Source: a virus. From it: a DNA stretch of 64,000 nucleotides. The position numbers and the translations under genes were made by a program. Shown in pieces: positions 5,454-58,310 of this stretch. Location of the stretch: positions 1 through 64,000 of the IMG/VR virus record IMGVR_UViG_3300042458_002038; one strand, 5' to 3'. The notes beneath the pieces were generated by a model that was not told where the DNA came from, did no database searches, and saw nothing but the letters and a program-made list of their open reading frames with translations. Numbering within the stretch: the first letter of the stretch is position 1; every line of letters begins with the position of its first letter.

Positions 5454-5459
5454 AAATTA

Positions 5460-6026
5460 TTAGTTACTCTTTACGCTCATACCCTTCATAATTTCTTTGA
5501 TTTGTTCAAAGTTTGCAAGGCGCGCAAGAACATGTACAATGTAATCAACTTTATTGTCAGGAATTTTTTTAATGACTGCCTTCAATTGCTTAAGCTTAAC
5601 TTTAGGAGGAGTTGATGCAAACCCATAATCAGGTGCTTCGATTTCTTCAGCTATAGAGGAATCATATGATTCGCTATAGTCATTTAAAATTTCTTCGTCA
5701 CTGTCGTCAGTACGCATCCACATATTAACAAATTTAGCTAACTTGCTAAGATCGCCTTTAAGTTCAATATCAACAGTTTTGTCATAACGGTTGTATTCAC
5801 CACCAAGAACAGTAAAGCCATGAGTCTTACCGAGAGTTTTAGCCTGAGCCATAATTTTATCTTCGTTTGACCCAGGAAATGGAACAGTCAATGTGACTAT
5901 CTTTGCTTCATCAAGTTGAGATACATTTTCAGCTGCAGCTTCTTCACGTGAAGCGTATGTTTGTTCGGCTAACATTGCACGATACGCATCAGCTGCTGTT
6001 GGTGGGATTGAGATGTGGTTATTCAT
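5460..6026 (-). CDS. putative internal head protein (paralog family)
   Basis: Same leader; late promoter at 6038-6045. Confidence 0.6.
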   Translation of the reverse strand: MNNHISIPPTAADAYRAMLAEQTYASREEAAAENVSQLDEAKIVTLTVPFPGSNEDKIMAQAKTLGKTHGFTVLGGEYNRYDKTVDIELKGDLSKLAKFVNMWMRTDDSDEEILNDYSESYDSSIAEEIEAPDYGFASTPPKVKLKQLKAVIKKIPDNKVDYIVHVLARLANFEQIKEIMKGMSVKSN

Positions 6027-7601: not shown

Positions 7602-8219
7602 TTATTCGATTTTTTTGGTCTGTCCAGCCTTTTTAGCTTTTTTCTCCATCAGCTTGCCGCGCTTTTCAAGGCGCTCAAGAACTTGATTTGCATCCAGCCA
7701 AATATCTTTGTCATTTGTCATGTCAACAATTTCCTCAGGCGTAAGGAAGTCGGTATACATATCTTGAAACAATCCAGTACTCCATTTGCGCTCATGCACC
7801 ATACCATGATACATTTCACCACCTTTGCCAACTGTTCCAGCACTATAGTTATGAAACAAGAACATGCTGTGATTGGTAATCATATATTCATCGGCCACCA
7901 AAAAGATAAGTGTTGCTGCGCTCATGCATGCACCTTCAACACTTACAATGATATGTGCTTCAGTTTCCTGTAATGCCTGAAGGAATTGAATGGTTGTAAA
8001 TAAGTTTCCTCCTGGGCAATTGATGTGAATCTTGATTGCATCAGTTTCACGACAGTTGCGAATCTCATGGAACCAACTGATATATTCACTGGGTGGTCCA
8101 ATTTCATCGCTCAGGTAATACTCACGTACACATCCATAATCGCTTGAGAAACTGTCTGGTGGTCCACTTGTTAGCAGATCAAGCAGGCCTTTGTTGTTTT
8201 TAGTTTTTGTATTATCCAT
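7602..8219 (-). CDS. ClpP-like (S14) serine protease
   Basis: HINCPGG, GACMSAAT (catalytic Ser), FLFH, DIWLDA motifs. Confidence 0.85.
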   Translation of the reverse strand: MDNTKTKNNKGLLDLLTSGPPDSFSSDYGCVREYYLSDEIGPPSEYISWFHEIRNCRETDAIKIHINCPGGNLFTTIQFLQALQETEAHIIVSVEGACMSAATLIFLVADEYMITNHSMFLFHNYSAGTVGKGGEMYHGMVHERKWSTGLFQDMYTDFLTPEEIVDMTNDKDIWLDANQVLERLEKRGKLMEKKAKKAGQTKKIE

Positions 8220-8311
8220 GTCCGAATAGTTTTTTGGTATTGTATTCTTTAATTACTTTCTTATCAAACATAATTGCATATACTGAATCTTGAATTTTTA
8301 TAAATACAATT

Positions 8312-9082
8312 ATGAGCCCTCTAATAATCTATATATATGTAAAACAACATTCCGTTACAGGTTTAAAGTATTTTGGCAAATGCACAACACGCGATCCGTT
8401 AACATATTTAGGATCTGGTAAGTATTGGTTAAGGCATATTAAAAAACACGGAACTCAATTTGTAGTCACGTTAAATGTATGGGAATTTGAAATAGCTGAT
8501 GAAGCTACAAAATTTGCATTAGAATATTCTAATGCAAACGATATAGTTAAATCTGAAGAATGGGCAAATTTAATAGAGGAAAACGCATTAGACGGATCAC
8601 CACTTGGAGTAAAGCGCTCAGGAGAAACTAAACAAAAAATAACTAATGCTTTGTTAGCTAGAAGTGATGAAGTTAAAGAACGTATAAAACTCTCAAATAC
8701 TGGTAAAAAAAGAAGTGATATAGTTAAAGAACAAATAAGAATTAGAAGTACTGGAAGATTGCATACCCAAGAAGCTAAAGATAAAGTATCTCGTAAATTA
8801 AAAGAAGCATGGGCTAATAATCCACGCGAAATTTCAGAAGAAACTAAAATGAAAATTTCTATAGCTGGTACTGGAAGATTGCATACGCAAGAAGCTAAAG
8901 ATAAAATTGGAATTGCTCACAAAGATAAAAATGTAAGTGATGAAACAAAACTTAAACAAAGCGAAAAAGCTAAAACTCGTTTATTAACGTGTGATTGTTG
9001 TGGAATTACATTAAATGCTGTTACCATAAGAAGATGGCATAATTCAAAATGTAAATATCATAATTTAAGTATGGCCAAATAA
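8312..9082 (+). CDS. GIY-YIG (Seg-like) homing endonuclease with NUMOD3 repeats
   Basis: YIY..GLKYFGK..YLGSG; repeated TGRLHTQEAKDK; C-terminal CxxC..RWH..C; late promoter at 8299-8306. Confidence 0.88.
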   Translation: MSPLIIYIYVKQHSVTGLKYFGKCTTRDPLTYLGSGKYWLRHIKKHGTQFVVTLNVWEFEIADEATKFALEYSNANDIVKSEEWANLIEENALDGSPLGVKRSGETKQKITNALLARSDEVKERIKLSNTGKKRSDIVKEQIRIRSTGRLHTQEAKDKVSRKLKEAWANNPREISEETKMKISIAGTGRLHTQEAKDKIGIAHKDKNVSDETKLKQSEKAKTRLLTCDCCGITLNAVTIRRWHNSKCKYHNLSMAK

Positions 9083-9763
9083 TTTAGTTCGATTATAATA
9101 CTTTATTGATTCGATTACCTTTGGTAACCAGCCATAAGTTTTTTCTTTAAAAACAATAGGAACCGGATTATCATCTATAGCCATAATAATCACGCTTTGC
9201 GTAACTGGTATATCGGTTCTTTCATAAAAGGCGGCGGCATAAAAGGCAGCTTGTATGAAGTAGTTGCTAATCTCTTCTCGAGTTTTAACGCGCTTACTGG
9301 TTTTAAAATCAATGACACTAAGTTTTCCTTCATATTCTGCAACGAGATCAACTCTTCCAGCAATTCCAAGATGATCACTATATAGCGGTCGTTCCTGCAT
9401 TACAACGCGTCCTATGTTGTTGTCAAGGATTGGTTGAATACTACGGAATAATGCTACAACATGAGGCATCTCATCCTTTTTGTATATATCAGGTTCGTTA
9501 TTAAGATACTTTTCAGCAATGGTGTGTAGCGCTGTTCCTCGAGCACAGGCGTGACGAGTGACGCGATTAGCTTCTTCTTCACCAACACGGCGGCGCCATT
9601 CATAGATAGCTTCTTTGCCGCGAACGCTCAATACAGTTGTAATACTAGGATACTTCTTTCCTTGAGGCGTAACATATAGTCGAGTGCCTGGGACGCTAGC
9701 ATCGCCCAGCTCGTTATAACCTAGATCTACAGGATCATGAACAAAAGTTTTGCGTTCATTCAT
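9065..9763 (-). CDS. PD-(D/E)XK exonuclease (T4-like exonuclease A)
   Basis: YPSITTVL, RGT.LH, AGRVDLV, IDFKTS, YFIQ..AY motifs. Confidence 0.85.
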   Translation of the reverse strand: MNERKTFVHDPVDLGYNELGDASVPGTRLYVTPQGKKYPSITTVLSVRGKEAIYEWRRRVGEEEANRVTRHACARGTALHTIAEKYLNNEPDIYKKDEMPHVVALFRSIQPILDNNIGRVVMQERPLYSDHLGIAGRVDLVAEYEGKLSVIDFKTSKRVKTREEISNYFIQAAFYAAAFYERTDIPVTQSVIIMAIDDNPVPIVFKEKTYGWLPKVIESIKYYNRTKLFGHT

Positions 9764-30807: not shown

Positions 30808-31099
30808 CGTTGTTTCCAATTTTAAATTCGCTTTGTGATAATAGATGATTTAGTAAGTCTCCAATATGATTCTTAAAGTCAGTGTCTTTGTCTAGAGATT
30901 CCTTAAGCAGCCCTTCTGGAGTGCTTTCAATCTTATAGACAAATGAAACCTTCAAGACATCATTTTCTTTGTCCTCAGTAAGGCGGGTGCGTCCATATGT
31001 ATAGATCACACCCGCCCAACGTCCAGACAATAATTTTATCGAGTATTGATCGCTATGTAAATCATTTTCGACAAAAATATAGTCTTTTTTCTCAGTCAT
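30791..31099 (-). CDS. gp40-like protein
   Basis: Size and position between uvsX and gp41 as in T4. Confidence 0.55.
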   Translation of the reverse strand: MTEKKDYIFVENDLHSDQYSIKLLSGRWAGVIYTYGRTRLTEDKENDVLKVSFVYKIESTPEGLLKESLDKDTDFKNHIGDLLNHLLSQSEFKIGNNDAKES

Positions 31100-31670
31100 C
31101 TGTTTGTTCTTCAGGCGATTCTTCAAAGGTGATTGCACTCTCAGGAACACGATCAAGATTAACTTCAACGTCATTCATCATGTCGCGCAGGCCGATGGTA
31201 TACTTGTTTTTGAGATATTCCGCAAAGTCAGTATTCTTAAATACAGTCTCCCAGAATTCTTTAGTCATGGTTTGAGCAGCACGCAGGTTGCCAGTCAACT
31301 CAACATCCTTTGCAATGTCCCATGCTTGGTACCAACCATTCTTTGGCTTGCGAACATAGCCACCAAGAATAGCAATATCCAATAGGCCGCTCCATTTTTG
31401 AACGCCACCTTCCCAGCTTACGCTGATTGGAATTTTGCTTTTTTCTTTAACAAAGCGACTCTTTTCTACATTGATTACAAAGTGATAACCTTGAATTTCA
31501 GTACCATCTTTATCTTGTTGGCGACCAATAATCCAAACATTGTCCGCACTATACATGATGCCTGTGTTATGCGTCACAACACCATTCTTAAGAATATAGT
31601 GTTCAGCATCTTTAACGCTAAGGTCATATACTTTTTGCCGCCCTATTGATTTAATTTCTTTAATTTTCAT
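31092..31670 (-). CDS. uvsX: split intein C-fragment (35 aa) fused to UvsX C-extein
   Basis: MKIKEIKSIG..VYDLSV..Y..NGVVTHN|TGIMYSADN..IGRQQDK..VEKSRFVKEKSKIP. Confidence 0.92.
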   Translation of the reverse strand: MKIKEIKSIGRQKVYDLSVKDAEHYILKNGVVTHNTGIMYSADNVWIIGRQQDKDGTEIQGYHFVINVEKSRFVKEKSKIPISVSWEGGVQKWSGLLDIAILGGYVRKPKNGWYQAWDIAKDVELTGNLRAAQTMTKEFWETVFKNTDFAEYLKNKYTIGLRDMMNDVEVNLDRVPESAITFEESPEEQTDD

Positions 31671-31679
31671 TATGTTATA

Positions 31680-32558
31680 TTATAATATATTTTCTTCTGT
31701 TTGTAAAGGTCTTTTTTTACATTTATCGCCATGCCATCTTTTAAAATTTGATGTGTCTATATCTCTATTGCAATGCTTGCATGTTTGCATTTGAAGACCT
31801 TGAGTAATTACTTTATAACGATATGGGTTAATCCATTCATCGGAATCTAGCTGTATTGCTTCATGTTTACTGACACGGATATTTTCACCAGTGATAACAT
31901 TTTTTAATGTTACAAGATCAGATCTACCTATTTTAGCTTTCCATTCTGGAGTGCGGTTTATTTTAGCTACATTTTCTCTAAACCATTCAATATCTTCAGG
32001 CTTTCTTTTATTGCCTTTATTTTTATCTCCAATAATTTTTCTAGTTTCTTCAGTATGGGTTTTTCCATAAAAACCGTTATCTTTACCAGAACGAATGATT
32101 TTTTGTTTGGTTTCTTCTGATAATTTATTGCCAAACGTCACACCAACATATTCACCATTTAATACTGATGAGTCATCTCTGGAAAGTCTAACAATCTTTC
32201 CAGTTTCTTTGTTTTTATATGTAGCATAATTTGGATTATGAAATGTATTTTCCATTGCTATAGATTTATTAAAATATTCCGGTGATGACACTGCAGATAC
32301 TTTTATTTGTTCTTCCGCTTCACGCTGAAGAACTTTTTCATAATCTTCAGACGAATATAAAATTTCTATTTCACATATATCAGATTGCACCATCTCTTTA
32401 TAGTTTTCCCATGTTGAAGATCCATAATAAGGTTTATTACGGCCGTCATATATTATGCCATTCTTAAAAGAGCAATTTGACTTTGATCCAATATAAAGGT
32501 ATGGTAAAATACCAGCAACTTTGCGTTTACTAAATGTTATTTTATATACTAAGTTCAT
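31680..32558 (-). CDS. GIY-YIG/NUMOD3 homing endonuclease between uvsX halves
   Basis: LVY..YLYIGSK..YYGSS..YFN; FYGKTHTEETR; C-terminal CKHC..RWH..C. Confidence 0.85.
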   Translation of the reverse strand: MNLVYKITFSKRKVAGILPYLYIGSKSNCSFKNGIIYDGRNKPYYGSSTWENYKEMVQSDICEIEILYSSEDYEKVLQREAEEQIKVSAVSSPEYFNKSIAMENTFHNPNYATYKNKETGKIVRLSRDDSSVLNGEYVGVTFGNKLSEETKQKIIRSGKDNGFYGKTHTEETRKIIGDKNKGNKRKPEDIEWFRENVAKINRTPEWKAKIGRSDLVTLKNVITGENIRVSKHEAIQLDSDEWINPYRYKVITQGLQMQTCKHCNRDIDTSNFKRWHGDKCKKRPLQTEENIL

Positions 32559-32595
32559 CGGTTGTATGGGTTTATTTATACAACCGATGAACTTA
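32550..32595 (-). promoter_or_regulatory. late promoter inside a hairpin that sequesters the endonuclease start codon
   Basis: 18-bp perfect stem TAAGTTCATCGGTTGTAT/ATACAACCGATGAACTTA with TATAAATA at 32573-32580. Confidence 0.8.
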
Positions 32596-32599
32596 AGAA

Positions 32600-33514
32600 T
32601 CAGATCAATACTTTACAATCTTGTCCAACCGTTAGGTCTTTTGCTTCTACCCAAAGGTCATCAATCATGAATTTGTGTTTATCACTGCAAACAATGGTGT
32701 GGCCATCCTCAAATGTAACTTCATAACATTCCGGTTCGCCTTCATCGAGCGTGTCTGGATTCCAAACAGCAGTAACTTCTTTAGGGCCATCTAATGTTTG
32801 AACATTATCACCAGCAATAAAGTCTTCAACCGGTTTAGTTGTTCCATCAGGCAGAGTAATAAGAGTTCCCGCAGCAACACAACCTCCACTAACAATAGCT
32901 TTTGGGAACAATCCAATTTCTTGATAGGTATGGTTGATTGCAAGCAAGCAAATGTTTTTCATTGTAAGGTATGGCGTAACCATACGGAACAATCCTTTAA
33001 GCGCTTTAGCACGAGTCATGTCGGCCACGCTCTTTTCATTCATTGCATCTTCCAATTCTTTTTTGGACGCAAGGTTACCAACACTATCAATAACAATAAT
33101 TACTTTATCCTTGCGCTCCATCTGCTCAAGTTGATTCACAATATCAAACTTGAGTTCTTCAATATTTTTAATGGGAATATGCAATACTCGGTTGGTATCA
33201 ATACCAAAGCTTTCAAAGTATTGCTGAGGACTACCAAATTCACTATCATAAAACATAAGACAAGCATCTTTATGTTTCTTAAGATATGCACCGGCCATAA
33301 GCAATGCAAAGCTAGTCTTAAAGTGCTTTGATGGACCAGCAAGAACGGTAAGGCCGCTGGTCAATCCACCGTCAATACTGCCACTTAATGCGACATTGAC
33401 CATTGGTACACTTGTGGAGGTGATGTCTTTTTCAGCATAAAAATCGCTGTCAGCCAAGACGTCGGCTTCTTTAATTCGGCAATTCTTTTTTAGTTTTTCT
33501 AGTACAGATGACAT
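32600..33514 (-). CDS. uvsX: UvsX (RecA-like) N-extein fused to split intein N-fragment (93 aa)
   Basis: AGPSKHFKTSF, FYDSEFG, IDSVGNLASKKE, NHTY..VSGG|CVAAGTLI..CSDKHKF..WVEAKDL. Confidence 0.93.
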   Translation of the reverse strand: MSSVLEKLKKNCRIKEADVLADSDFYAEKDITSTSVPMVNVALSGSIDGGLTSGLTVLAGPSKHFKTSFALLMAGAYLKKHKDACLMFYDSEFGSPQQYFESFGIDTNRVLHIPIKNIEELKFDIVNQLEQMERKDKVIIVIDSVGNLASKKELEDAMNEKSVADMTRAKALKGLFRMVTPYLTMKNICLLAINHTYQEIGLFPKAIVSGGCVAAGTLITLPDGTTKPVEDFIAGDNVQTLDGPKEVTAVWNPDTLDEGEPECYEVTFEDGHTIVCSDKHKFMIDDLWVEAKDLTVGQDCKVLI

Positions 33515-33536: not shown

Positions 33537-34808
33537 TTATAACAGGTTTTTCTTGGAATGTAAACTAAAAAATTCATCAAGTTCATGAGAATTATTTAGC
33601 AGCACACGTGTAGGATATTCAACCGTCTTATTCTTATTGCTTTGTTTGGTATAGTTACTTTCACTCCAAGTAACATCGCCATCAAGATACTTTACTACAT
33701 TAAGCATCATATCACGAGCTGTACTTACAGGTACATTTTGGCAGATGTGATTAATCTTGGTTTTAAGCGGGTGCAATGATGCAAGATTAAAGTCTTCAGG
33801 CATCTTCATAACACGGAGACAGTCACGTACAGTTGGAAAGCTTTGAGTAAATGGATTAATCATCCAGAATGGCAATGCTCCAATCAGACTAGGAATAATA
33901 CCTTTGACCATAGTAATGCCATGCGCCCAGTAACCCATACCTTTTGCACGTTTAGCGGCCATATCCCGAGCACGTCCTGCAGTTTTAGTATAACCATTCG
34001 CATCCATCCATTCCGATACAACTGTAAGATTATCACCTAAGCCGCCGTCGGCCCAGACAATAAGATTCTGTGTATCATCCAGGGTGTCATATAGTTCTTT
34101 AATATCTTTAGTACCAGTCTTGTGCATGGCGTATGCAGCCCAACCATTGGTATTGGGATCGTCTTCATTGCAAGAGATATTCATTGGATCACCATCAGCA
34201 TATGCCATATTAAAGATGTTTTCAATGGGTTCTCCAGGAACATTAAACCAACTAAATAACGGAGCAGATGTACTCTTAGTAAAGAAGTAGAATGTGCGGC
34301 CGCGCTTTTGAGACAGGCCGTGAAGGCGGCTTTCAGTATAATACAAGTTTAAGCTATACCCATACTTTTCGCCGATAGCAAACAAACGGTCTGCGACTTT
34401 TTTACCCATGTTGCTGTATAAACGTGGAGCATTCTCGCCCCAAAATACTTTAGGACCTACTTTATCAAGTACATATTCAGCAGTGGTATACAACCATTCA
34501 TTAACTGCACTATCTGCACTGCTTGCAGTGCTAAGGCTGCTCAAACCAGCACAAGGGCAGGTGGAATTTACAACATCAACCGATTCTGGTACATAATCAG
34601 GCTGTTTGTCAAGGTGAATATAGTCACCAGTCCATCCTTTTGTGTTGCGGATGTATTGAATGTAGTGATCATCATTGCTTGCAAAGGGACTATATGATAA
34701 TACGTATTCTGGAAGTTGTCCATCTAGTGCTTCCATGACTCCAAGTGATTCACCGCCAATAAGCGGTACGATTGATGCGTATGTGTATTTCTTTTGTGCG
34801 TTCTCCAT
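33537..34808 (-). CDS. DNA cytosine-C5 methyltransferase-like protein
   Basis: TCPCAGLS (motif IV), WGENAP (VI), SQKRGRTF (VIII), TVRDCLRVM..PEDF, CQNVP (X); motif I degenerate (PLIGG). Confidence 0.75.
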   Translation of the reverse strand: MENAQKKYTYASIVPLIGGESLGVMEALDGQLPEYVLSYSPFASNDDHYIQYIRNTKGWTGDYIHLDKQPDYVPESVDVVNSTCPCAGLSSLSTASSADSAVNEWLYTTAEYVLDKVGPKVFWGENAPRLYSNMGKKVADRLFAIGEKYGYSLNLYYTESRLHGLSQKRGRTFYFFTKSTSAPLFSWFNVPGEPIENIFNMAYADGDPMNISCNEDDPNTNGWAAYAMHKTGTKDIKELYDTLDDTQNLIVWADGGLGDNLTVVSEWMDANGYTKTAGRARDMAAKRAKGMGYWAHGITMVKGIIPSLIGALPFWMINPFTQSFPTVRDCLRVMKMPEDFNLASLHPLKTKINHICQNVPVSTARDMMLNVVKYLDGDVTWSESNYTKQSNKNKTVEYPTRVLLNNSHELDEFFSLHSKKNLL

Positions 34809-34816
34809 AAATTGAT

Positions 34817-36100
34817 TTATAGGACTTTGCCGGGACCCGTAATCTTATTCAATGCAGCTAGCGTAACATCATTCAAATGCTCACCAGAATAGTATGATGG
34901 CTTTAACATAGTATCAAGAGTATCGCGCAACTTAGTATATGCGTCTGGATTACTTTCAAGATATGCAATCTTATCAAACAGGTCTTTACTGTCCTTTACA
35001 CGCAAGAACTGTGGAGCATTTAAATGGTTTTGTTCATCATAAGTTGGATGCAGGAATGGTATGATTCCATAATGAGCCATCTCCCAGAACTTCATGGTGA
35101 CCCATCCTTTTTTGATAGGAATGCAATAAGTATATTTTACGCGGGGCAGCATGCTTTGCAATTCATGGAACGGTAAGCTGCCTTTAAAACGAGAGTCTGT
35201 TCCAATAGTACGCTCATCCCATTTGCCATAGATTGCTACATCTTGTACATGGTTAAGAATGGTTTCTTTCAACAGGTTGTATCGTGATGGTCGCCCCTCA
35301 TTGAGAACAATCATAAAGTTGATGTCTTTTATACCAGCCGGCTCTGGTATGTCTTCACCAAAGAATGTATCCAACGACGAAGTTTCCGTTTCGGCGCTTT
35401 GCTTTTCTTTATCTTGTCCAATAAGAAAGATGGTTTCCATTGCACTATAGGTACTGGGAATGGTGTGCACTACCGTTTCATTGTCTGTATAGTTTTTACG
35501 AACTGTTACACGCGTATCTTCATCATATTGTGACAAGACAATGGTTGGCATATGAATCCAATCGCGTGCATTAGGAGGCCAGAAGCGTGGATCATTTACA
35601 ATGAGAATGTATGGGATGTGGCGATTATCATTCATCCAATCCGTCATGGGTGCAACATATTTGCATAACATTTCAAGAGGACTTGCAACCTCACTAGGGT
35701 TACGCATTTTGGTAACCTTAAATGGAATGTTGGTAGTACCGGTTGGACCAGTAAATACAACACCAGCATCAAACTTTACATGATTGAGTGCAACATATTC
35801 TTTAAGGTATTCTATATTGTGTAATTTACTGTCCATTGGATTGTTCTTTTTCCAATCCACAAACTGCTTACCCCAAATGTCAACCACATTACCATTCGCA
35901 TTGATGCGTTGCTTTTCGCTGCTGCTTAGACGTGAAAAGTCATTGCAACCCAACAGGTAAAATGTAATGCTAGGATTACGCGCAAATAGGTTTTCATAAT
36001 ACTTGGGCGCTTCGCAGTCACCGCCAATATTCCCCCATGAATCGCGATTAAACAATATGCTCTTGCCAATCTTTCCTACATATACATTCATATTATCCAA
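34817..36100 (-). CDS. GT-B glycosyltransferase (phage DNA glycosyltransferase-like)
   Basis: NDPR, IYGKW, W.TMKFWEM..YGIIPFLHPTYDEQ; position next to uvsX and gp42 like T4 beta-gt. Confidence 0.7.
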   Translation of the reverse strand: MDNMNVYVGKIGKSILFNRDSWGNIGGDCEAPKYYENLFARNPSITFYLLGCNDFSRLSSSEKQRINANGNVVDIWGKQFVDWKKNNPMDSKLHNIEYLKEYVALNHVKFDAGVVFTGPTGTTNIPFKVTKMRNPSEVASPLEMLCKYVAPMTDWMNDNRHIPYILIVNDPRFWPPNARDWIHMPTIVLSQYDEDTRVTVRKNYTDNETVVHTIPSTYSAMETIFLIGQDKEKQSAETETSSLDTFFGEDIPEPAGIKDINFMIVLNEGRPSRYNLLKETILNHVQDVAIYGKWDERTIGTDSRFKGSLPFHELQSMLPRVKYTYCIPIKKGWVTMKFWEMAHYGIIPFLHPTYDEQNHLNAPQFLRVKDSKDLFDKIAYLESNPDAYTKLRDTLDTMLKPSYYSGEHLNDVTLAALNKITGPGKVL

Positions 36101-37112
36101 TCTTAACGCTGTCTGTATTCAAGTCAACCATGTAGGTTAGAGGATCAATGCCGCCGCGCTCAATTTCTTTTTCAAGGTAGGCAATTGTATCATCAAGTGC
36201 AGTTGAGATACTTTTCTTTGGGCACCAGCCAAGCGAGAGCGCCTTGCGAATATCCGCAAATATTTCAAATGCTTCACCGTTGATTTCCGGCATAAAGGTA
36301 TATTCTACTGCATCTGGCACTTCATATCCACGCGCTTTAAGTACACCTGCAACAGCATCACCAATTTCAAATAGGCTACAACTTTGTCCACGCCCAAGAT
36401 TGTATGTTTGGCCAATAGTGCGATCATCGGTTAAGCATTGAACGTGAAAAGCATTCACGTCATCAACATGAATAAAGTCCCTACGACGTTGGCCATCGCC
36501 GAAGATGATTGGGTTGTTACCTCCCATCATGCGAATAGCAAAGCCGGCAAACAGTGGAGGCACAGTGCGCTTGTAGTCTTGAATAGGCCCTGCAATATTA
36601 AAGTAACGCAATGCAGTATAGCGCAATCCTTTGGTGCGTGCATAACTTTCAGCAAGCAATGCAACAGCTGCTTTAGTGCTTGCATACACTGTAGTAGGAT
36701 CGCTTTGGCCTTCAAAATAACCATCTTGTAGCAGCTCACAATTTTCATATACTGCACTCGTCTCAGAGAAAACAACGCGTGGGCAACCGGCTGCAAGCAG
36801 TGCATCAAATACATTTACACTACCAACAATGTTGTTGTCAACCGCACTTGATGTGTCACGATGGCAATCATAAATGCTAACCAAGCCTGCAAAGTGAAAA
36901 GTAATGTCAGGTTTGATATTGCCAATGTGTAAATGCATTGCTTCACGGTCACGAATATCGCATTTGAAAAAACGGACACGATCATGCACTTCAGGGATAT
37001 ATGAGCCGTGCGCAAGATTGTCAATTACAATCACATCATGCCCTAGTTCTAACAAATCAGGAATAAGATTTGTTCCGACGAAGCCGCAGCCTCCAGTAAT
37101 AAGTATCTTCAT
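36093..37112 (-). CDS. NAD-dependent NDP-sugar epimerase/dehydratase
   Basis: ITGGCGFVG, YASTK, LRYFN.AGP, FGDG.Q.RDFIHV.D. Confidence 0.92.
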   Translation of the reverse strand: MKILITGGCGFVGTNLIPDLLELGHDVIVIDNLAHGSYIPEVHDRVRFFKCDIRDREAMHLHIGNIKPDITFHFAGLVSIYDCHRDTSSAVDNNIVGSVNVFDALLAAGCPRVVFSETSAVYENCELLQDGYFEGQSDPTTVYASTKAAVALLAESYARTKGLRYTALRYFNIAGPIQDYKRTVPPLFAGFAIRMMGGNNPIIFGDGQRRRDFIHVDDVNAFHVQCLTDDRTIGQTYNLGRGQSCSLFEIGDAVAGVLKARGYEVPDAVEYTFMPEINGEAFEIFADIRKALSLGWCPKKSISTALDDTIAYLEKEIERGGIDPLTYMVDLNTDSVKIG

Positions 37113-37128
37113 AGAGTTATATATGTGG

Positions 37129-37584
37129 TTAATTTTTCTTTGCAATGACGCGCGATCTCAATTCACTTGTAGAGAAACTGTGTCTTCTTTTGTTGTAATG
37201 GATTGGGCAAAGGTCTTTTCCGGTGTGATTGGTACCTTGGTATTCCTCGCCAACAATGCGCACATCAGGATTGATTGTAAGAATCATATCTTCCAGATCC
37301 TTTTCGGTTTCAAAGGGAATAATTTCGTCCACATATTTGCATGCTGATACTTGTAGGTATCGCTCAAATACACTTTGAACTGGTGCGTTCTTTGTATCAG
37401 CACGATCCTTTGTGGGATCAACCAATAATCCTACAATTAGATAGTCACACAATTGTTTTGCTTCCATAAGCATAACGGTATGACCTGCATGAAAGAGATC
37501 AAATGTTGATGCCGTAAAGCCTATACGAATTTCTTCAATGGGTTTGCCAATAAGTTTAGCCAGTGATTGTTTGTCGAGCAGCAT
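37129..37584 (-). CDS. cytidylyltransferase-like nucleotidyltransferase (TagD/HldE-C family)
   Basis: STFDLFHAGH, CDYLIVGL, ER..V..CKYVDE, R.HSFSTSELR. Confidence 0.88.
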   Translation of the reverse strand: MLLDKQSLAKLIGKPIEEIRIGFTASTFDLFHAGHTVMLMEAKQLCDYLIVGLLVDPTKDRADTKNAPVQSVFERYLQVSACKYVDEIIPFETEKDLEDMILTINPDVRIVGEEYQGTNHTGKDLCPIHYNKRRHSFSTSELRSRVIAKKN

Positions 37585-38614
37585 TGATTTTATTTTTTAA
37601 GTGTTGTAGTAAAGATGGTTTGTCTTTTGCATATGGATACATTCTGCAAAGGTGACCAATCTCATGTGCTTTGAGAACCTCAAACTCAATGTTTGAATAA
37701 TATTCAATATGATCCAATTGACCATCTAGTGGATCATTTAGCGCAATTGATGTATATAGTTTAGCAATGTCTATAACCCATGAGCTGTAAAGAGTAGGGT
37801 CATTGATTGGGTCAATGAAATATGCCGAAGTGGAATCGTTAGGGCCACTCATAATATTGCTAACGCTACAATCACCATGAGAGAATGTGGCTGGTGTTTG
37901 ACGCATAGCTTCGCTCAGCATAAGGTATATGAAGCTATAGTCTTCTAAAGATAATACATCTTTGACGCGATCTCGGCAACGTGCAATATATGAATCGGCG
38001 CTAACAGGTTCAGATTGCAGAGGCGGATGAGAAGCGAAGGTATGAACGGTTTCCAGCACGTCGGTTATGTCACCACTGTATGTATGCAAATATTGCATAC
38101 GAATAGTATCACCAATAACACTATGCACCCCTGGGACATTATAACCATACCATCGCGCGGCCTCAAACCATCGCACAACACTCTGTGTATTTTTTGATGT
38201 CTTGTAGACGCTGTCAGTTACTTTATCATAATACACAGAGTCACCACTCCAACCACCAACCAAACGAGTGCGCTCAAAACTTTTAACAAATTGTTCTGGT
38301 GTAATACCTTTGTCATCAATATAGTATGCTGCCAGCTTCTTTTGGAAGCTAAGCGAGCTATACTTTACATCATGCTGCGCAAGCCAGCTCTCAATTTGTG
38401 CTCTGTACTTGAGATCGGCCGCTTCACAATCACCATTACATGAGAGTTGACCTCGTGCGGTAACAATATGAATGCTCCAGCCATCATCACATAAAGCATT
38501 GAGTTTGTTGACAAGCGCAACATTTGGCATTGCATTTACCCAATCACGATTGTGAGTAATAGCAATGGTATCATCAAAGTCAACAACAAGAGTGGTTGTA
38601 TAGTCTGAAATCAT
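37556..38614 (-). CDS. HAD phosphatase fused to APH/choline-kinase-like domain
   Basis: VDFDDTI, VTARG, YIDDK; then GGWSG, HGDCSVSNI, FIDP, DIAKL. Confidence 0.8.
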   Translation of the reverse strand: MISDYTTTLVVDFDDTIAITHNRDWVNAMPNVALVNKLNALCDDGWSIHIVTARGQLSCNGDCEAADLKYRAQIESWLAQHDVKYSSLSFQKKLAAYYIDDKGITPEQFVKSFERTRLVGGWSGDSVYYDKVTDSVYKTSKNTQSVVRWFEAARWYGYNVPGVHSVIGDTIRMQYLHTYSGDITDVLETVHTFASHPPLQSEPVSADSYIARCRDRVKDVLSLEDYSFIYLMLSEAMRQTPATFSHGDCSVSNIMSGPNDSTSAYFIDPINDPTLYSSWVIDIAKLYTSIALNDPLDGQLDHIEYYSNIEFEVLKAHEIGHLCRMYPYAKDKPSLLQHLKNKINAARQTITG

Positions 38615-38629
38615 ATGATGTATATATGC

Positions 38630-38971
38630 TTAGATGCGGCGGTTAAGAAAATCGCGATCAGCTTCTTGACCATCAACTTTGCCGCGCATATATGCTACAA
38701 GGAATGAACTGTAGTTGATTAGATCCTTACCACTATCTTCAATACTCTCAAAGTTGGGTTGATACTCAGGATCATTTTCCATAGCTTCAATCACACTATA
38801 CATTCGCAATACCTTAGCTTGAATAATATCAAGAATGCTAGCTACACCGCGTGGGTAATAGTTTGCTTGACGAATGCGACTGTTTGGGTTTTGATAGTCA
38901 CGACTCTTGCGTTCTTGCAATTCGGCGCATTCTTTCAATACCAGAATACTTTCTTTAACTGGTGGAGTCAC
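38630..38971 (-). CDS. nucleotide-modification-associated helical protein (DUF1599/Nmad1-like)
   Basis: Q.RKSRDY, K..R, ESIEDS..DLINYS; probable GTG start at 38971 (frame open to 39058). Confidence 0.65.
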   Translation of the reverse strand: MTPPVKESILVLKECAELQERKSRDYQNPNSRIRQANYYPRGVASILDIIQAKVLRMYSVIEAMENDPEYQPNFESIEDSGKDLINYSSFLVAYMRGKVDGQEADRDFLNRRI

Positions 38972-38987
38972 AGCAGTTGTGTTTGGA

Positions 38988-39113
38988 TTAACCTTGGCCA
39001 CGTGACAGTTTCTTGTAGTTTTTACTTTGTTTAAGATGAGAAGTTTTGCTTTTGGCATGAATTCCCTTGCGACGAATTTTCTTTGGCTTAACCTTAGGGT
39101 TATTGTTTTTCAT
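38988..39113 (-). CDS. 41-aa basic peptide
   Basis: MKNNNPKVKPKKIRRKGIHAKSK...RGQG, directly after promoter at 39120-39148. Confidence 0.5.
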   Translation of the reverse strand: MKNNNPKVKPKKIRRKGIHAKSKTSHLKQSKNYKKLSRGQG

Positions 39114-39131
39114 AAATTTATTATATACTGT

Positions 39132-39302
39132 TTATATGGATTTGTAAAGGACTTTTTTGCATTTATTAAAATGATATCTTGTCATGTTTGGACGCCGCCC
39201 GATTTTAGCACAATAGGGACAATGAACAATATTCCAAGTTTTCTTTTTGCCTAAATGAATATCTGATAATTTTTTTCGCAATTTATTTGCAGCTTTATTC
39301 AT
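39132..39302 (-). pseudogene. homing endonuclease C-terminal remnant
   Basis: RKKLS..H.GK and CPYC..RYHFNKCK match the C-termini of the 8312 and 31680 endonucleases; no catalytic domain. Confidence 0.6.
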
Positions 39303-40041
39303 ACAATTTTTTATAATCTTCTTTAGATATAACAAATTCTTTTCCCTCCGTTTTGATATAATGATCTAGTAAGTAAAATTGTCGACTATACACATGCAGC
39401 GATCCTACTTGCCATGTGATGCTGCCAGCACTAATTACATTGCCAGTGCGGCATGCAAGATCTTCAACCAAGCAGCCTTGAATATACTTTTGCCATGCAT
39501 AGTCATTTCTATATCCGGCCCAAACATCATTACTGCGCATCTGAACAATCATATGCAGCTGCGAGTCTCGAAGTAGAAACTGAACAACATTGGTGCAAAT
39601 GAAGTCGCTCATTCCACCAGCACACCAGTCAGTATGCATAGAAGGTCGAGTGTAAATCATTACAGCACGGCGGCTTTCAGGGTTAACGCATAATTCATTG
39701 CGTACATTTCCATACTGTGAGCCATTCTCTTTGCTTAACACAAGGTAACCATAATTGCTGTTGATGAAGCCTGCAGGAGTAGCTACAGCTGTCCAGATGG
39801 CCGGTGTCTTGCCTGGGATATCATTTACATTAAGGCTCTGTGAAAGATACCAATCCAATTCGTGTTGAATATACTCAGCATTCTCAGATCCAAAGATTAG
39901 TGCTTCATCAGCAATAAAACTTGCGCCAATCAGCTCTACTGTTTTTACGCCGCTCTTATCGGTTGTGAATTTTTCGGTTAGGTATTGTTCGGCGAGCAAT
40001 TCGCGAACGTCATTTACATTCGTTTGAATAATGTTGTGCAT
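39295..40041 (-). CDS. gp42: dCMP hydroxymethylase (thymidylate synthase superfamily)
   Basis: INSNYG, SRRAVMIYTRPSM, DFICTN, MRSND...GYRNDYAW (Asp typical of dCMP-specific enzymes), GSLHVY. Confidence 0.88.
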   Translation of the reverse strand: MHNIIQTNVNDVRELLAEQYLTEKFTTDKSGVKTVELIGASFIADEALIFGSENAEYIQHELDWYLSQSLNVNDIPGKTPAIWTAVATPAGFINSNYGYLVLSKENGSQYGNVRNELCVNPESRRAVMIYTRPSMHTDWCAGGMSDFICTNVVQFLLRDSQLHMIVQMRSNDVWAGYRNDYAWQKYIQGCLVEDLACRTGNVISAGSITWQVGSLHVYSRQFYLLDHYIKTEGKEFVISKEDYKKLYE

Positions 40042-40046
40042 ACTGT

Positions 40047-40391
40047 TTAAAATAAAAGTTTACGGCAGTTAAGAATGATTTGCATATTGTGAACATCATC
40101 ATACTCAAGTACAGTCTGATCACGCGGCTCTTCATCCTGAAGAAGTTCTTGCTCAATAGTTTGATCTATTGCAAGTGGGCGATCACGTGTAATATATGTA
40201 TATGCATCGCTCAAAAAGTCTTTAAGCACGGCACCATTCCTAATGGTGTTCCAATCGGTATTCGCATACTCTGTGCTTTCAACAAAGCTTACGGTTTTGC
40301 TAAAAAGCAATTCGCGCAATGGATCATCAGATCCAGTTTGACGTGCGCTAAACATTTGGCCTAGTCGGCTCCAGACGGTTTCGTTTTTCAT
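40047..40391 (-). CDS. hypothetical protein
   Basis: ORF after promoter at 40398-40426. Confidence 0.6.
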   Translation of the reverse strand: MKNETVWSRLGQMFSARQTGSDDPLRELLFSKTVSFVESTEYANTDWNTIRNGAVLKDFLSDAYTYITRDRPLAIDQTIEQELLQDEEPRDQTVLEYDDVHNMQIILNCRKLLF

Positions 40392-54931: not shown

Positions 54932-56014
54932 TTAACAGAAAAAGTCTTCTAGACTTGCACGCGGTTCTGCGCTCCAGCCAATTGCATCAAGAATAAGTTC
55001 AAGTGGTTCAATGAAAGTCTTGTTGAACTGATGATCATAATTGACATACTTGTTCATATCAAATTCAACTGGCAGTGTATCCACAAATCCAATAACATTT
55101 TCGGCTGTTGGGTTGGGCATCTTGAGAGGAATGTATTTGATACGGTCACCGCTTTGGATTGGTTGATATGTATCGGATAATCCTTTCTGCTTAAGCATAT
55201 GATTATACATTAGAGCAGCACGCACATGCATTGGTGTACCTTTCTTATAGATGGTTTGTTTATCACGCCACTTTACAATATCAGTAATACCTCGTGGAAA
55301 AGCAACCTGTTCAATTGGGATGGTTGCAAAATGCGCACGAAACATTGCAATTGCAGCCTGCGTCTTAGCTTCATCCTCATTGATAATAATCTTAAAGATT
55401 TCCTTGAATGCGCCGCGGCATACTTTAGGAGTACTGCTTTTGATTGCTTCGATACCCATCATTTTGATTTTTGGTTCGGTATACTGCACTCCTTCATTGT
55501 TGTGAATATTAAGAATGTATCGCTTCTTAGCAGTCCAGATTCCACGGTCAGCAATAGCCTCCCGCTTCATAACCATTGCAGGTTTATAAACATTGGTAAG
55601 ATCGGCAAGGCTATCAAATGCTTTCTTAAGCATCGGCTCAACGGCCTTGCTGCCAAATTCATCAAGGAATGCAACTGGATTGTTGGGCTTAAACTTTTCA
55701 ATCACATCTTTTACGTGAATATACAAACTGTCCGTGTCAGCTGCAATAACTCGATCCACAACGCCGTCATCCTTAAGGAATTTGCTAAGCCAAACATTAG
55801 CATGCTCTTCAGCCCAGCGAATAACCAACTGACCAGTAAGAGTAATACCTTCAGCAACTGCAATATCAAAGTAACGGAAATAGTTGTTGCCGATAGCACC
55901 GTAAAGTGAATTGAGCAAAATCTTTAGACACATCTGTTCTGTCTCAAGACGTGAAATTTCGGTTTCAAGAACCGCAAGCTGTGATTTAAGTTGTGTATCA
56001 GTTAAGTGCGTCAT
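54932..56014 (-). CDS. gp43: DNA polymerase B, C-terminal subunit (gp43B)
   Basis: KILLNSLYGAIGN, ITLTGQ, ADTDS, MKREAI, KKRY, MGIE..KSSTP. Confidence 0.95.
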   Translation of the reverse strand: MTHLTDTQLKSQLAVLETEISRLETEQMCLKILLNSLYGAIGNNYFRYFDIAVAEGITLTGQLVIRWAEEHANVWLSKFLKDDGVVDRVIAADTDSLYIHVKDVIEKFKPNNPVAFLDEFGSKAVEPMLKKAFDSLADLTNVYKPAMVMKREAIADRGIWTAKKRYILNIHNNEGVQYTEPKIKMMGIEAIKSSTPKVCRGAFKEIFKIIINEDEAKTQAAIAMFRAHFATIPIEQVAFPRGITDIVKWRDKQTIYKKGTPMHVRAALMYNHMLKQKGLSDTYQPIQSGDRIKYIPLKMPNPTAENVIGFVDTLPVEFDMNKYVNYDHQFNKTFIEPLELILDAIGWSAEPRASLEDFFC

Positions 56015-56747
56015 ATAATTTATTAAAACAATTCATTTTAGTTTGGTGAATTTCTTTATCGGAAAATCTTATTACAGTATAGCCTTCAGATACTGCAAAT
56101 GAATCAAATGCATTGTCTTTGGTCTTTTGTTGTTCATTTTCATGCCAGTATTCTCCATCTATTTCTACTAGAAGCCTACGGTTAATAATAACAAAATCAA
56201 ACCTATGTGTAAATGGTTTAATTTGGAATTGGCGACTATATTCAATTTCATTTTTATCGCACCATGCGGCAAAGAGTCGTTCTGGTTTAGTAAAACGGTA
56301 TTTTCCTTCAGTGACACGGTGTACTCCAATTTCCCCATTAAAGCATTTTTCTTGTTGAGTTTTTCTCTTTTCGGGTGTCCATAATCTATTGGTATAATCA
56401 CTCATTCTTTTTGGTGTTAAGCCATATCTCTTAACAAGACCGCATATGGTGGCTTTAACTGAACCAATCTCATTTGCTATTTCTTGATAAGTCATATTTT
56501 TTTCATACAACATTATCTTAAGAGTTTCTTCATCAAGTAATGGTTTATGTGAATCTGCCATTCTTTGCCTGACTACTTTACTTTTTGAGTGAGAAAGTAA
56601 ATCAGGAAATTCACTTTTTATTTTTTTATAAAATGCGTGATAATTCAATGAATGTTTTTCACATAAGAAACCTAATGAATTTCCTGATTGAATTTCCGAT
56701 ACTACCGTATCGTAATGCTGGTCTAACTGATATTGATATTTTGGCAT
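55998..56747 (-). CDS. Vsr/DUF559-like (EDxHD-type) homing endonuclease
   Basis: TKPE, FDF, LVEIDGEYWH, KD..GY.VIR; N-terminal HTH; late promoter at 56773-56780. Confidence 0.82.
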   Translation of the reverse strand: MPKYQYQLDQHYDTVVSEIQSGNSLGFLCEKHSLNYHAFYKKIKSEFPDLLSHSKSKVVRQRMADSHKPLLDEETLKIMLYEKNMTYQEIANEIGSVKATICGLVKRYGLTPKRMSDYTNRLWTPEKRKTQQEKCFNGEIGVHRVTEGKYRFTKPERLFAAWCDKNEIEYSRQFQIKPFTHRFDFVIINRRLLVEIDGEYWHENEQQKTKDNAFDSFAVSEGYTVIRFSDKEIHQTKMNCFNKLYDALN

Positions 56748-56783
56748 AATTAAGTATAAGCGTGTTCATTAGTATTTATACTT

Positions 56784-58310
56784 TTATGCTTTTGCGCCTC
56801 TTCTTTTTAGTTCCTCTAAGATGGTTTCCTTTTCCTTTTTCTTGCGAATCATTTCAGCTTTGATGCCTACACGACGATTGTATAGCTCCTCAATAATCTC
56901 TGGAAGGAATCCTTGCTTATCACGACGGAAGCATGCGCCGTTTGCAGCAACCGCAAGATTCGGCTCAGGGCTGATGTGAGTCTTGTTGGTCAATACAACG
57001 TCAGGATTCATGCTTGGCAGATGCATATGTCGCACGAGTGTTTCAGGACTCATGTTGTACTGAATAATGATGTTGGGGTAAAGACTGTTAAGGTCAAAAC
57101 TCATAACCCAATCATACATGCCGGGAACCACTTCCTTGACAAATCCACCTGGGTAGCTAACCTTTTGACTTGGGCGACTTGGCGGCACTGCAATCTTTTT
57201 TAATGCAAGGCGACGGAAGATGATGCTATCCCAAATGGCAACCGTACCTAGTGTATCGCTATAGTTGACACCACCAAAATATGCTAGCGTAAACACAAGG
57301 TTAATCAATCCCAGCTTGGCTTCAAAGCGTTCAATAAGTTCAACGTCAACAATGTTGTAGTCCACAAACTTTTGGAAGTCCCGCTCATACAGTTTGGCAA
57401 GCGTGCCTTCTTCGCCATAGTCCAACTTGTTTTGGCCAAGAACAACTTCAGCAATATGATCCAACTTGTAGCTTTCTTGTTTGCCATAAGTATTGAGTGT
57501 AAACTTTTGGAACAGATCCATATAGTCAAGTTGCTGAATGCCAGCGATGTTATAGAGAGTATTCTCACGGCCTTTCACAGTAACCGTCTTTTGCTCAATC
57601 TTTCCCCATGGGCTCAGCTTGCTAGCTTCATCACTACCCAATACTCTACTGATACGATTCACAAGGTAAGGAACATCAAAGAGTGTGGTATTCCAACCGG
57701 TAACCACATCAGGCATATTAAGAGTATCACTCCACCAAGCGATAAAGTCCAGCAGCATTTCGGCTTCGGTTTCAAATTGACGATACTCCTTTTTAAGATG
57801 TGGAATGCTGCTGGCGCTACTATCATAATCCTTTAGTCCCCACACAATGTATTGCTCAGCTCTGCTGCTCTTTAGTGCAATGGTCAATACGCTATGACGT
57901 GCCTCACTAGGCTCAGGGAAACTTGTGGTTGTCACGCCTGGGATTACCCCATAAGCAGTCTCAATATCAATGTATGCAATGTCAATAAGGCGGCGATCAT
58001 ACTTAATTTCATTGGGAAACTCTGCTTGAATGAAAGCAGGAATATGACGGTCATTTCCATAGATTTTAAAGTTGGGAACACCTTCATAGCTTTTTGCAAA
58101 CTCACGGCACTCACTCATACTATCAAATCTCATCGGCTCAAGTGGGAGACCTTCAAGGCTGCGCCACTTTGCAGCTTTATCCTTACTTTCCAGATACATT
58201 ACTGGACGGAATTTGTAACTGTTGTAAACCTTTTTACCTTCGTCATCATAGCCGCGATAGCGCAGGCTGTTCATATGGCGGTCAATGCAAGTATAGAATC
58301 CGTTAATCAT
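56784..58310 (-). CDS. gp43: DNA polymerase B, N-terminal subunit (gp43A)
   Basis: IDIET, TGWN..FDVPYL, SYKLDHIA, DYNIVDV, SFDLNSLYP.II.QYN.SPET. Confidence 0.95.
   Translation of the reverse strand: MINGFYTCIDRHMNSLRYRGYDDEGKKVYNSYKFRPVMYLESKDKAAKWRSLEGLPLEPMRFDSMSECREFAKSYEGVPNFKIYGNDRHIPAFIQAEFPNEIKYDRRLIDIAYIDIETAYGVIPGVTTTSFPEPSEARHSVLTIALKSSRAEQYIVWGLKDYDSSASSIPHLKKEYRQFETEAEMLLDFIAWWSDTLNMPDVVTGWNTTLFDVPYLVNRISRVLGSDEASKLSPWGKIEQKTVTVKGRENTLYNIAGIQQLDYMDLFQKFTLNTYGKQESYKLDHIAEVVLGQNKLDYGEEGTLAKLYERDFQKFVDYNIVDVELIERFEAKLGLINLVFTLAYFGGVNYSDTLGTVAIWDSIIFRRLALKKIAVPPSRPSQKVSYPGGFVKEVVPGMYDWVMSFDLNSLYPNIIIQYNMSPETLVRHMHLPSMNPDVVLTNKTHISPEPNLAVAANGACFRRDKQGFLPEIIEELYNRRVGIKAEMIRKKKEKETILEELKRRGAKA

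Follow-up and report, generated by a model that had tools for sequence, protein, structure and literature searches.

What does a T4-like phage make with a set of sugar-activating genes lodged between gene 42 and uvsX? The question is raised by a DNA stretch of 64,000 nucleotides (the window, positions 1 to 64,000 of IMG/VR record IMGVR_UViG_3300042458_002038), in which exactly seven co-oriented genes, adjoining uvsX, occupy the minus strand from 33537 to 40041. Read 5' to 3', they encode a thymidylate-synthase homolog, Nmad1, a HAD-kinase fusion, a HIGH-type nucleotidyltransferase, an epimerase of the short-chain dehydrogenase/reductase (SDR) type, a glycosyltransferase (GT) and a C5-methyltransferase-like protein, just as an earlier annotation of this DNA (hereafter the original prediction) had listed them. 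This operon probably puts 5-hydroxymethylcytosine (hmC) into the phage DNA and then adds a sugar that the phage itself has activated, a five-step explanation that we hold to be likely as a whole; the expected benefit is that the phage DNA is shielded from restriction and CRISPR nucleases. Whether a phage evades or sets off a given restriction, type IV or CRISPR defence depends on its glycosylated cytosines.

The source record is a virus fragment of 73.7 kb, about 41% complete by estimate. The operon belongs to an uncultured marine T4-like phage without a close cultured relative; when the 6.5-kb region was compared by megablast with 50,697 phage records, no match came back, and gp41 of this phage is about 57-61% identical to gp41 of cyanomyophages. 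The junctions between the cluster genes are overlaps or gaps of 1-16 nt, and the T4 order uvsX, segA, b-gt, 42 is mirrored by uvsX, transferase and gene 42 in the window, so that the gp42/beta-gt position beside uvsX, proposed in the original prediction, holds. Two starts were revised. The epimerase open reading frame (ORF), listed as 36093-37145, was shortened to the ATG at 37112 on the basis of its orthologs and the Rossmann motif (MKILITGGCGFVG; YASTK is present as well), and the GT, listed as 34817-36100, has its likely start at the ATG at 36091. A survey of related loci found the same gene set in dozens of IMG/VR contigs, and the arrangement is therefore not due to chance.

The thymidylate-synthase homolog matches PDB 1b49, the T4 deoxycytidine monophosphate (dCMP) hydroxymethylase, over residues 11-245 (E 3.3e-82), and in alignment its identity is 56% with T4 gp42 and 21% with RB69 gp48. 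Its FICTN and GYRNDYAW segments align with FMCTN and GFRNDYAW of T4, which gives it the catalytic Cys and an Asp at the position of N177 of E. coli ThyA, the mark of dCMP rather than deoxyuridine monophosphate use. At the position of ThyA L143, where an acidic residue is expected of a gp42-type enzyme, the window enzyme has Asp (MSDFIC), and RB69 gp48 reads TLEYPC. The 'dCMP hydroxymethylase' of RB69-like phages is actually a flavin-dependent 5-hydroxy-dCMP (5hodCMP) synthase, recognised by an Asn where E. coli ThyA has Asp169, and every 5hodCMP synthase tested has this Asn (PMC13326640, 2026). Here the window enzyme keeps Asp (MRSNDV), as T4 does, whereas RB69 gp48 has Asn (MRSQNC). On the Asp-169 signature together with the homology to gp42, the window enzyme should be a true hydroxymethylase, which predicts hmC rather than 5-hydroxycytosine (5hoC) as the base.

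For the GT, sequence searches were uninformative: the Pfam GT-B match is sub-threshold, a 12-sequence profile run against the PDB returned only noise, and T4 b-gt, which has no sequence-level similarity to the window GT, gave no tblastn match in the window. The fold was therefore predicted from a model built on 52 homologs (predicted local distance difference test, pLDDT, 92). T4 beta-glucosyltransferase (BGT, GT63) was the top match of this model in Foldseek (E 9e-10) and the first of 998 chains in VIA-align, with Z 22.3 over 315-319 of 351 residues, a root-mean-square deviation of 3.4-3.7 Å and 10-12% identity in the structural alignment. By VIA-align, the GT4 enzymes reached Z 18-20, T4 alpha-glucosyltransferase 17 and the HY126 arabinosyltransferase 17.0.

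That this predicted enzyme acts on DNA rather than on the cell surface is well supported, by the model and by analogy, because of three observations. In one relative with the same surrounding gene frame (L121), the GT slot is filled by a PF11440 DNA alpha-glucosyltransferase (218 bits, L121:5145-6371) accompanied by a dCMP deaminase. Distant GT orthologs end in L(E/D)xFF; the window DNA polymerase ends in ASLEDFFC and T4 gp43 in ASLDFLFG, and in the polymerases this C-terminal motif binds the sliding clamp. Finally, in Agathobaculum phage AB434P2, an unrelated phage of Clostridia, the HAD-kinase, the HIGH transferase and the GT lie beside a thymidylate-synthase homolog with Asp at the ThyA-143, -169 and -177 positions.

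As a separate observation on AB434P2 (OP172633, 1314-4500), its gene annotated 'deoxyuridylate hydroxymethyltransferase' carries the dCMP signature, Asp at ThyA-177, and this gut phage probably glycosylates hmC rather than 5-hydroxymethyluracil.

The sugar donor would be prepared by the three enzymes encoded between Nmad1 and the GT. Besides TIGR01689, the HAD part of the fusion matches PDB entries 1xpj and 9iqw at E 1e-14 to 1e-15 (9iqw 2.9e-14), and it is 36% identical to RB69 gp51, a homolog of the AfhF-type phosphatase (E 2e-12). The kinase part shows weak but consistent Pfam matches to EcKL, APH and RIO1. The DxDxT motif of the HAD and the HGDxxxxN...D motif of the kinase are invariant among orthologs, and the fusion is 30% identical across both domains to gp4 of AB434P2. 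It would convert a sugar omega-phosphate to the sugar 1-phosphate. The nucleotidyltransferase finds its best NCBIfam match in rfaE_dom_II / TIGR02199, the adenylyltransferase domain of HldE, with 68.4 bits against a cut-off of 181.5; its PDB matches are ethanolamine-phosphate cytidylyltransferase (ECT) and TagD, its FDLFHAGH and RRHSFSTSELR segments are conserved, and its AB434P2 homolog is 51% identical. This enzyme would turn the sugar 1-phosphate into a nucleoside diphosphate sugar (NDP-sugar). The epimerase, with its GGCGFVG (GxxGxxG) and YASTK (YxxxK) motifs, scores 136.1 bits with the GalE model TIGR01179 (cut-off 262) and 97.1 bits with the HldD model TIGR02197 (cut-off 274.6), and its best PDB match is 4zrm, a uridine diphosphate (UDP)-glucose 4-epimerase (1e-40).

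The pathway would then run as follows. The gp42-type enzyme would hydroxymethylate dCMP, so that hmC is incorporated at replication; the homology and the residue signature are observed. The HAD-kinase would act on a host sugar phosphate, phosphorylating the anomeric carbon and removing the distal phosphate to leave a sugar 1-phosphate, a step proposed because of the domain pair, the homology of the HAD to the AfhF phosphatase and a published module, contig 53, described below. The small HIGH nucleotidyltransferase would form the NDP-sugar and the GalE-like SDR would epimerise it, a step that many relatives do without. Lastly, the BGT-like GT-B enzyme would move the sugar onto the hydroxymethyl group of hmC in duplex DNA, as its fold, position and analogy suggest. 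The combination of hmC, a phage-made nucleotide-sugar and a DNA transferase, which was the core of the original prediction, is well supported by the residue signature, the GT fold, the L121 slot, the clamp-binding tails and the published reconstitution.

This reconstitution concerns contig 53, assigned by Pyle, Lund, O'Toole and Saleh to subclass III of their biosynthetic gene clusters. Contig 53 encodes a HAD-like/APH-like bifunctional enzyme, a cytidine triphosphate transferase and a GT-B enzyme with T4 BGT architecture (GT53, 429 aa, top PDB matches 3mbo and 1bgt), and all three were essential in E. coli for the production of mono- and di-heptosyl-5hmC (449 and 641 u); the same mining of metagenomes found GT-B enzymes near thymidylate synthases, epimerases, APH phosphotransferases, methyltransferases and clamps (bioRxiv 10.1101/2023.12.21.572611, Pyle et al.). 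The window has in common with it the three-enzyme core, a GT of about 425 aa, T4 BGT and BshA as best structural matches and the labels TIGR01689 and TIGR02199. By this analogy, the core of our finding is already known since 2023. In contig 53, however, 5hmC is made after replication by a C5-methyltransferase and TET, whereas in the window it would be made before replication by the gp42-type enzyme. The window thus differs from the known module in its pre-replicative source of hmC, in its added GalE-like epimerase, in Nmad1 and in an orphan methyltransferase-like partner with a clamp-binding tail, for which a weak search of the 73.7-kb record found no TET. It sets the only experimentally tested type of self-supplied heptosylation module in a pre-replicative, T4-type context. 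Contig 53 itself was not located among the fetched loci, where TET was sought in five divergent loci. The original prediction had spoken of a possibly uncharacterised base; heptosyl-5hmC from such a module was reported in 2023, but the epimerase step alone could yield an undescribed epimer, which raises the question of what the epimerase changes in the sugar.

Three other known systems resemble the operon in part. T4 has the gp42 ortholog, the position between gene 42 and uvsX, the BGT fold and early expression in common with it, but T4 draws on host UDP-glucose without sugar-activation genes and has neither a C5-methyltransferase-like gene nor Nmad1 at this locus. RB69, DLP3 and HY126, which make arabinosyl-5hoC, likewise produce their own NDP-sugar by an anomeric kinase, a HAD phosphatase and a nucleotidyltransferase (PMC13326640), and they also have the homologous HAD, a GT-B DNA transferase and a locus adjoining uvsX. 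In these phages, however, the base comes from the Asn-169 flavin-dependent 5hodCMP synthase, where the window has an Asp-169 hydroxymethylase, and an NTP_transferase-fold enzyme is fused to the kinase (AfhE), where the window has a separate HIGH enzyme and a kinase fused to the HAD. RB69 gp52 and gp53 have no match in the window at E 1e-3, nor does RB69 gp55 have one in 159 related loci. With the adenosine diphosphate (ADP)-heptose pathway, the window shares the class order of kinase, HAD phosphatase, HIGH nucleotidyltransferase and SDR epimerase; its kinase is protein-kinase/APH-like, not PfkB, and its HAD is of the TIGR01689 subfamily, not GmhB. The analogy with ADP-heptose synthesis drawn in the original prediction therefore stands for the enzyme classes, but no enzyme passes the curated HldE or HldD thresholds.

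The related loci examined were 80 IMG/VR loci selected by homology to the GT and 79 selected by homology to the methyltransferase-like protein, with the cluster proteins scored on all of them. Among the methyltransferase-selected loci with at least 6 kb upstream (n=32), the gp42-type enzyme and uvsX are present in all 32, Nmad1 in 30 and this GT family in 16. Conversely, 76 of the 80 GT-selected loci have the methyltransferase-like protein and 10 have the epimerase. In every adequately covered locus the methyltransferase-like protein occurs together with the gp42-type enzyme, whichever cassette is present between them. A constant frame emerges, made of gene 42 and Nmad1 on one side and of the methyltransferase-like gene and uvsX on the other, with a variable slot in between. 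In this group of phages, Nmad1 is a constant companion of gene 42. Its conserved core spans about 105 aa. PF07659 (Nmad1) recognises 16 of 19 orthologs, with 2.4e-7 as the best value, and the window copy itself reaches only E 0.09; its profile gave chance matches only against the PDB, and in Atlas it found only viral hypothetical clusters, one of them with DUF1599.

The variable slot holds at least four kinds of cassette: in uncultured marine T4-like phages, which are abundant, the gene 42-uvsX stretch is a place where sugar cassettes are exchanged. Cassette A, the window type, has the HAD-kinase fusion and the HIGH transferase, with the epimerase in a minority. Cassette B has a free-standing HAD and an NTP_transferase-kinase fusion, as in Pseudoalteromonas phage XG4; this fusion has an AfhE-like architecture with only faint similarity to RB69 gp52:53. 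Cassette C consists of a T4-type alpha-glucosyltransferase and a dCMP deaminase, and cassette D of other sugar genes, for instance a UDP-glucose-dehydrogenase-like protein with an SDR. In a quick GT tree, cassettes A and B are interleaved. Two near-isogenic phages, L029 with cassette A (3300025590_000469) and L056 with cassette B (3300025806_000055), have GTs that are 91.5% identical, and their recombination junction falls within the last 25 codons of the GT gene. Either cassette, A or B, can therefore serve what is almost one and the same GT, and the donors that they supply are probably identical or equivalent.

Some individual loci add to this description. The slot of L126 (4036-8999) contains a HIGH transferase, a dCMP deaminase, a UDG-like protein, an SDR and a UDP-glucose-dehydrogenase-like protein. 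One relative, L007 (IMG/VR 3300042887_002198), has a GT and a methyltransferase-like protein 100% identical to those of the window by tblastn, and identity is 88% for the HAD-kinase, 89% for the nucleotidyltransferase, 92% for gene 42 and 60% for the 114-aa gene upstream; this pattern of identities indicates recent mosaic exchange inside the operon. The sole cultured phage found to carry both the GT (36% identity) and the methyltransferase-like protein (31%) is Pseudoalteromonas phage vB_Psh_XG4 (PP712099, 100-6580), whose record is unannotated. Its cluster comprises a thymidylate-synthase homolog with Asp-169, a HAD, an NTP_transferase-kinase, the GT, a second GT-like protein of 368 aa and the methyltransferase-like protein, and it would serve as a practical model for wet-lab work.

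Which sugar is transferred? A heptose or an epimer of heptose is the most likely answer, although we would give it slightly less than an even chance; the split between heptose, pentose and hexose is drawn because cassette A is built like the heptose module and cassette B like AfhE. Several points weigh against the proposed pathway or its heptose product. The match to contig 53 consists only of a common architecture and common family labels. Measured against the curated HldE and HldD cut-offs, the nucleotidyltransferase and the epimerase score far too low, and the epimerase is closer to GalE, which would favour epimerisation at C4 of a pyranose. The HAD domain is homologous to AfhF, a phosphatase of the arabinose pathway. 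Since GTs 91.5% identical occur with either cassette, the sugar is not readable from the cassette type. The description of the pathway as self-contained is not borne out: searches of the 73.7-kb record gave no sugar-phosphate isomerase (PF01380, SIS) and no T4-type dCTPase (gp56) or deoxynucleoside monophosphate kinase (gp1), a negative of little weight when the record covers only about 41% of the genome. The original prediction was right that no isomerase is visible, neither a GmhA as in the ADP-heptose pathway nor the arabinose-5-phosphate isomerase that belongs to the RB69/HY126-type system, and with none in the fragment the sugar precursor would presumably come from the host. Lastly, hmC has no free C5 and is hence no substrate for a C5-methyltransferase.

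The module may instead convert a host pentose 5-phosphate to an NDP-pentose (arabinose, ribose or xylose) and so give pentosyl-hmC, the hmC counterpart of the RB69/HY126 base; we regard this as unlikely, but as a serious possibility. Its HAD is homologous to the AfhF-type phosphatases (9iqw, RB69 gp51), its kinase-then-phosphatase logic is that of the published route from arabinose 5-phosphate through arabinose 1,5-bisphosphate to arabinose 1-phosphate, near-identical GTs are paired with the AfhE-like cassette, and arabinose 5-phosphate is supplied by Gram-negative hosts, which makes a phage isomerase unnecessary. However, the module of the same architecture yielded heptose in E. coli, where pentose phosphates also exist, and the marine NTP_transferase-kinase is only faintly like its RB69 counterpart. 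Moreover, a furanose offers no free C4 hydroxyl to a GalE-like 4-epimerase, and the window GT is nearer in structure to T4 BGT than to the HY126 arabinosyltransferase.

An ordinary hexose donor, formed from glucose 6-phosphate through glucose 1-phosphate and NDP-glucose to NDP-galactose, would give glucosyl- or galactosyl-hmC and, if true, such a supply would be useful in hosts with little UDP-glucose. This is doubtful. The epimerase is indeed most like the UDP-glucose 4-epimerases, the GT most like the UDP-glucose-using T4 BGT, and a T4-type alpha-glucosyltransferase sits in the same slot of relatives; yet the GalE score lies far under the equivalog cut-off, and the GT of contig 53 alone gave no product in E. 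coli despite abundant UDP-glucose, the product of the complete module being heptose. We also know of no HIGH-type enzyme that makes NDP-glucose, which counts further against a hexose.

It is very improbable that the sugar genes serve as auxiliary metabolic genes for altering the host lipopolysaccharide (LPS) or capsule and have no relation to DNA. Their PHROGs and NCBIfam labels do name heptose, capsule or LPS enzymes, and a survey of pelagimyophages assigned rfaE, UDP-glucose dehydrogenase and glycosyltransferases to LPS (PMC7029224). But in the window these genes belong to one early operon and are placed within the replication module, with gene 42 and uvsX on either side. The closest fold of the GT is a DNA glucosyltransferase, a DNA alpha-glucosyltransferase occupies its slot in relatives, and its distant orthologs carry the polymerase-type clamp-binding motif. 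In a phage of Gram-positive hosts, too, this trio is found with a dCMP-type thymidylate-synthase homolog, and the published experiment on the module of this architecture gave a DNA modification. A DNA role for the operon would correct the cell-surface reading of such 'rfaE/LPS' genes in marine myophages. Finally, a 5hoC base of the kind found in RB69, DLP3 and Thanatos, whose C5 would carry the sugar directly through an ether bond, fits the similar gene order of RB69-type phages and the long annotation of their thymidylate-synthase homologs as dCMP hydroxymethylases, but it is highly unlikely for an enzyme that keeps Asp at ThyA-169, where the tested 5hodCMP synthases have Asn, and that is far closer to T4 gp42 than to RB69 gp48.

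If the operon glycosylates hmC, as we favour, the methyltransferase-like protein is its most puzzling member. Its match to PF00145 (43 bits) exceeds the cut-off of 22, and its model (pLDDT 90) matched the folds of DNA C5-methyltransferases only: MET1, DNMT1, M.HhaI, M.HaeIII and a C5-carboxymethyltransferase. Among 33 orthologs, the catalytic motifs PC86, E125-N-A-P, Q167xR169xR171 and QNVP are invariant, and motif I is an equally invariant PLIGG, not the canonical FxGxG that binds S-adenosylmethionine (SAM); the motif II-like ND and the motif III-like GDY are retained. Nearly all orthologs have (S/T/Q)L(D/E)xF(F/M/I) near the C-terminus, LDEFF in the window copy. The protein is, to judge from its sequence conservation, under selection, and it probably rides the sliding clamp on newly replicated DNA, as its tail suggests. 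Internal stops in eleven orthologs proved to be an artefact, tblastn having run beyond the true stop.

What, then, does it do, and why does a clamp-tailed C5-methyltransferase-like enzyme always join a pathway that leaves no free C5? Its most conservative role, the methylation of cytosines that escaped replacement, has in our view about an even chance of being the right one. Because of its constant pairing with the gp42-type enzyme, whatever the cassette, and of its altered but invariant PLIGG, it might rather carry out a replisome-coupled chemistry of C6 attack on hmC or glycosyl-hmC, or use a cofactor other than SAM, and so produce a further, undescribed cytosine derivative, which we consider improbable. 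A search for TET (Tet_JBP) found no match in the 73.7-kb record, a weak result, the control genomes being equally silent; nor is there a TET-sized unassigned gene among the cluster genes or the flanking ORFs examined.

Cyanophage S-TIM5 (NC_019516), which is not T4-like, likewise encodes a homolog of the methyltransferase-like protein (25% identity). The features of this phage lie at 4787-5623 and 8007-9224; its thymidylate-synthase homolog is about 2.4 kb from the methyltransferase-like homolog and has Asp at ThyA-177 and Cys at ThyA-143, and these residues suggest that S-TIM5, too, may have a modified cytosine.

Table 1. Predicted features of the operon and its upstream border in the window.
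Feature	Coordinates	Strand	Evidence
dCMP hydroxymethylase, T4 gp42 type	39295..40041	-	E 3e-82 to PDB 1b49; 56% identity to gp42
Nmad1 (DUF1599) small helical protein	38630..39058	-	PF07659 via orthologs
HAD phosphatase (N-terminal) and APH/protein-kinase-like sugar kinase (C-terminal) fusion	37556..38614	-	TIGR01689 3e-16; HGDxxxxN...D
HIGH-motif, cytidylyltransferase-like nucleotidyltransferase	37129..37584	-	PF01467 6e-15
GalE-like SDR nucleotide-sugar epimerase	36093..37112	-	PF01370 9e-49
GT-B DNA glycosyltransferase (predicted), beta-GT counterpart	34817..36091	-	fold by model; position
C5-cytosine DNA methyltransferase-like protein, non-canonical motif I (PLIGG)	33537..34808	-	PF00145 43 bits
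LDEFF, probable sliding-clamp (gp45) binding tail of the methyltransferase-like protein	33567..33581	-	ortholog and polymerase tails
Early-type promoter-like site TTTACA-N17-TATAAT before the Nmad1-to-methyltransferase operon	39120..39148	-	11/12 consensus positions; consensus match only
114-aa protein, behind a second TTTACA-N17-TATAAT site; operon membership uncertain	40047..40391	-	conserved upstream of gene 42

Near-consensus sites of the TTTACA-N17-TATAAT type lie upstream of the 114-aa gene that precedes gene 42, of the Nmad1 gene and of uvsX. The late-promoter motif TATAAATA occurs 19 times in the window and not once within the cluster. The 114-aa protein has no match in Pfam, PHROGs or NCBIfam, and close relatives retain it ahead of gene 42 with 29-60% identity.

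On the minus strand, uvsX (31092-33514) is in two pieces that flank a free-standing homing-endonuclease gene at 31680-32558 (NUMOD3, GIY-YIG-type PHROGs), and its N-terminal piece (32600-33514) ends in a Hint/intein-like segment with matches to Pfam Vint, Hint and Intein_splicing, all of them weak. Also on the minus strand, the gene for DNA polymerase gp43 (54932-58298) matches T4 gp43 in two stretches, 58298-56820 and 56026-54938, with a gap between the two; it seems to be split.

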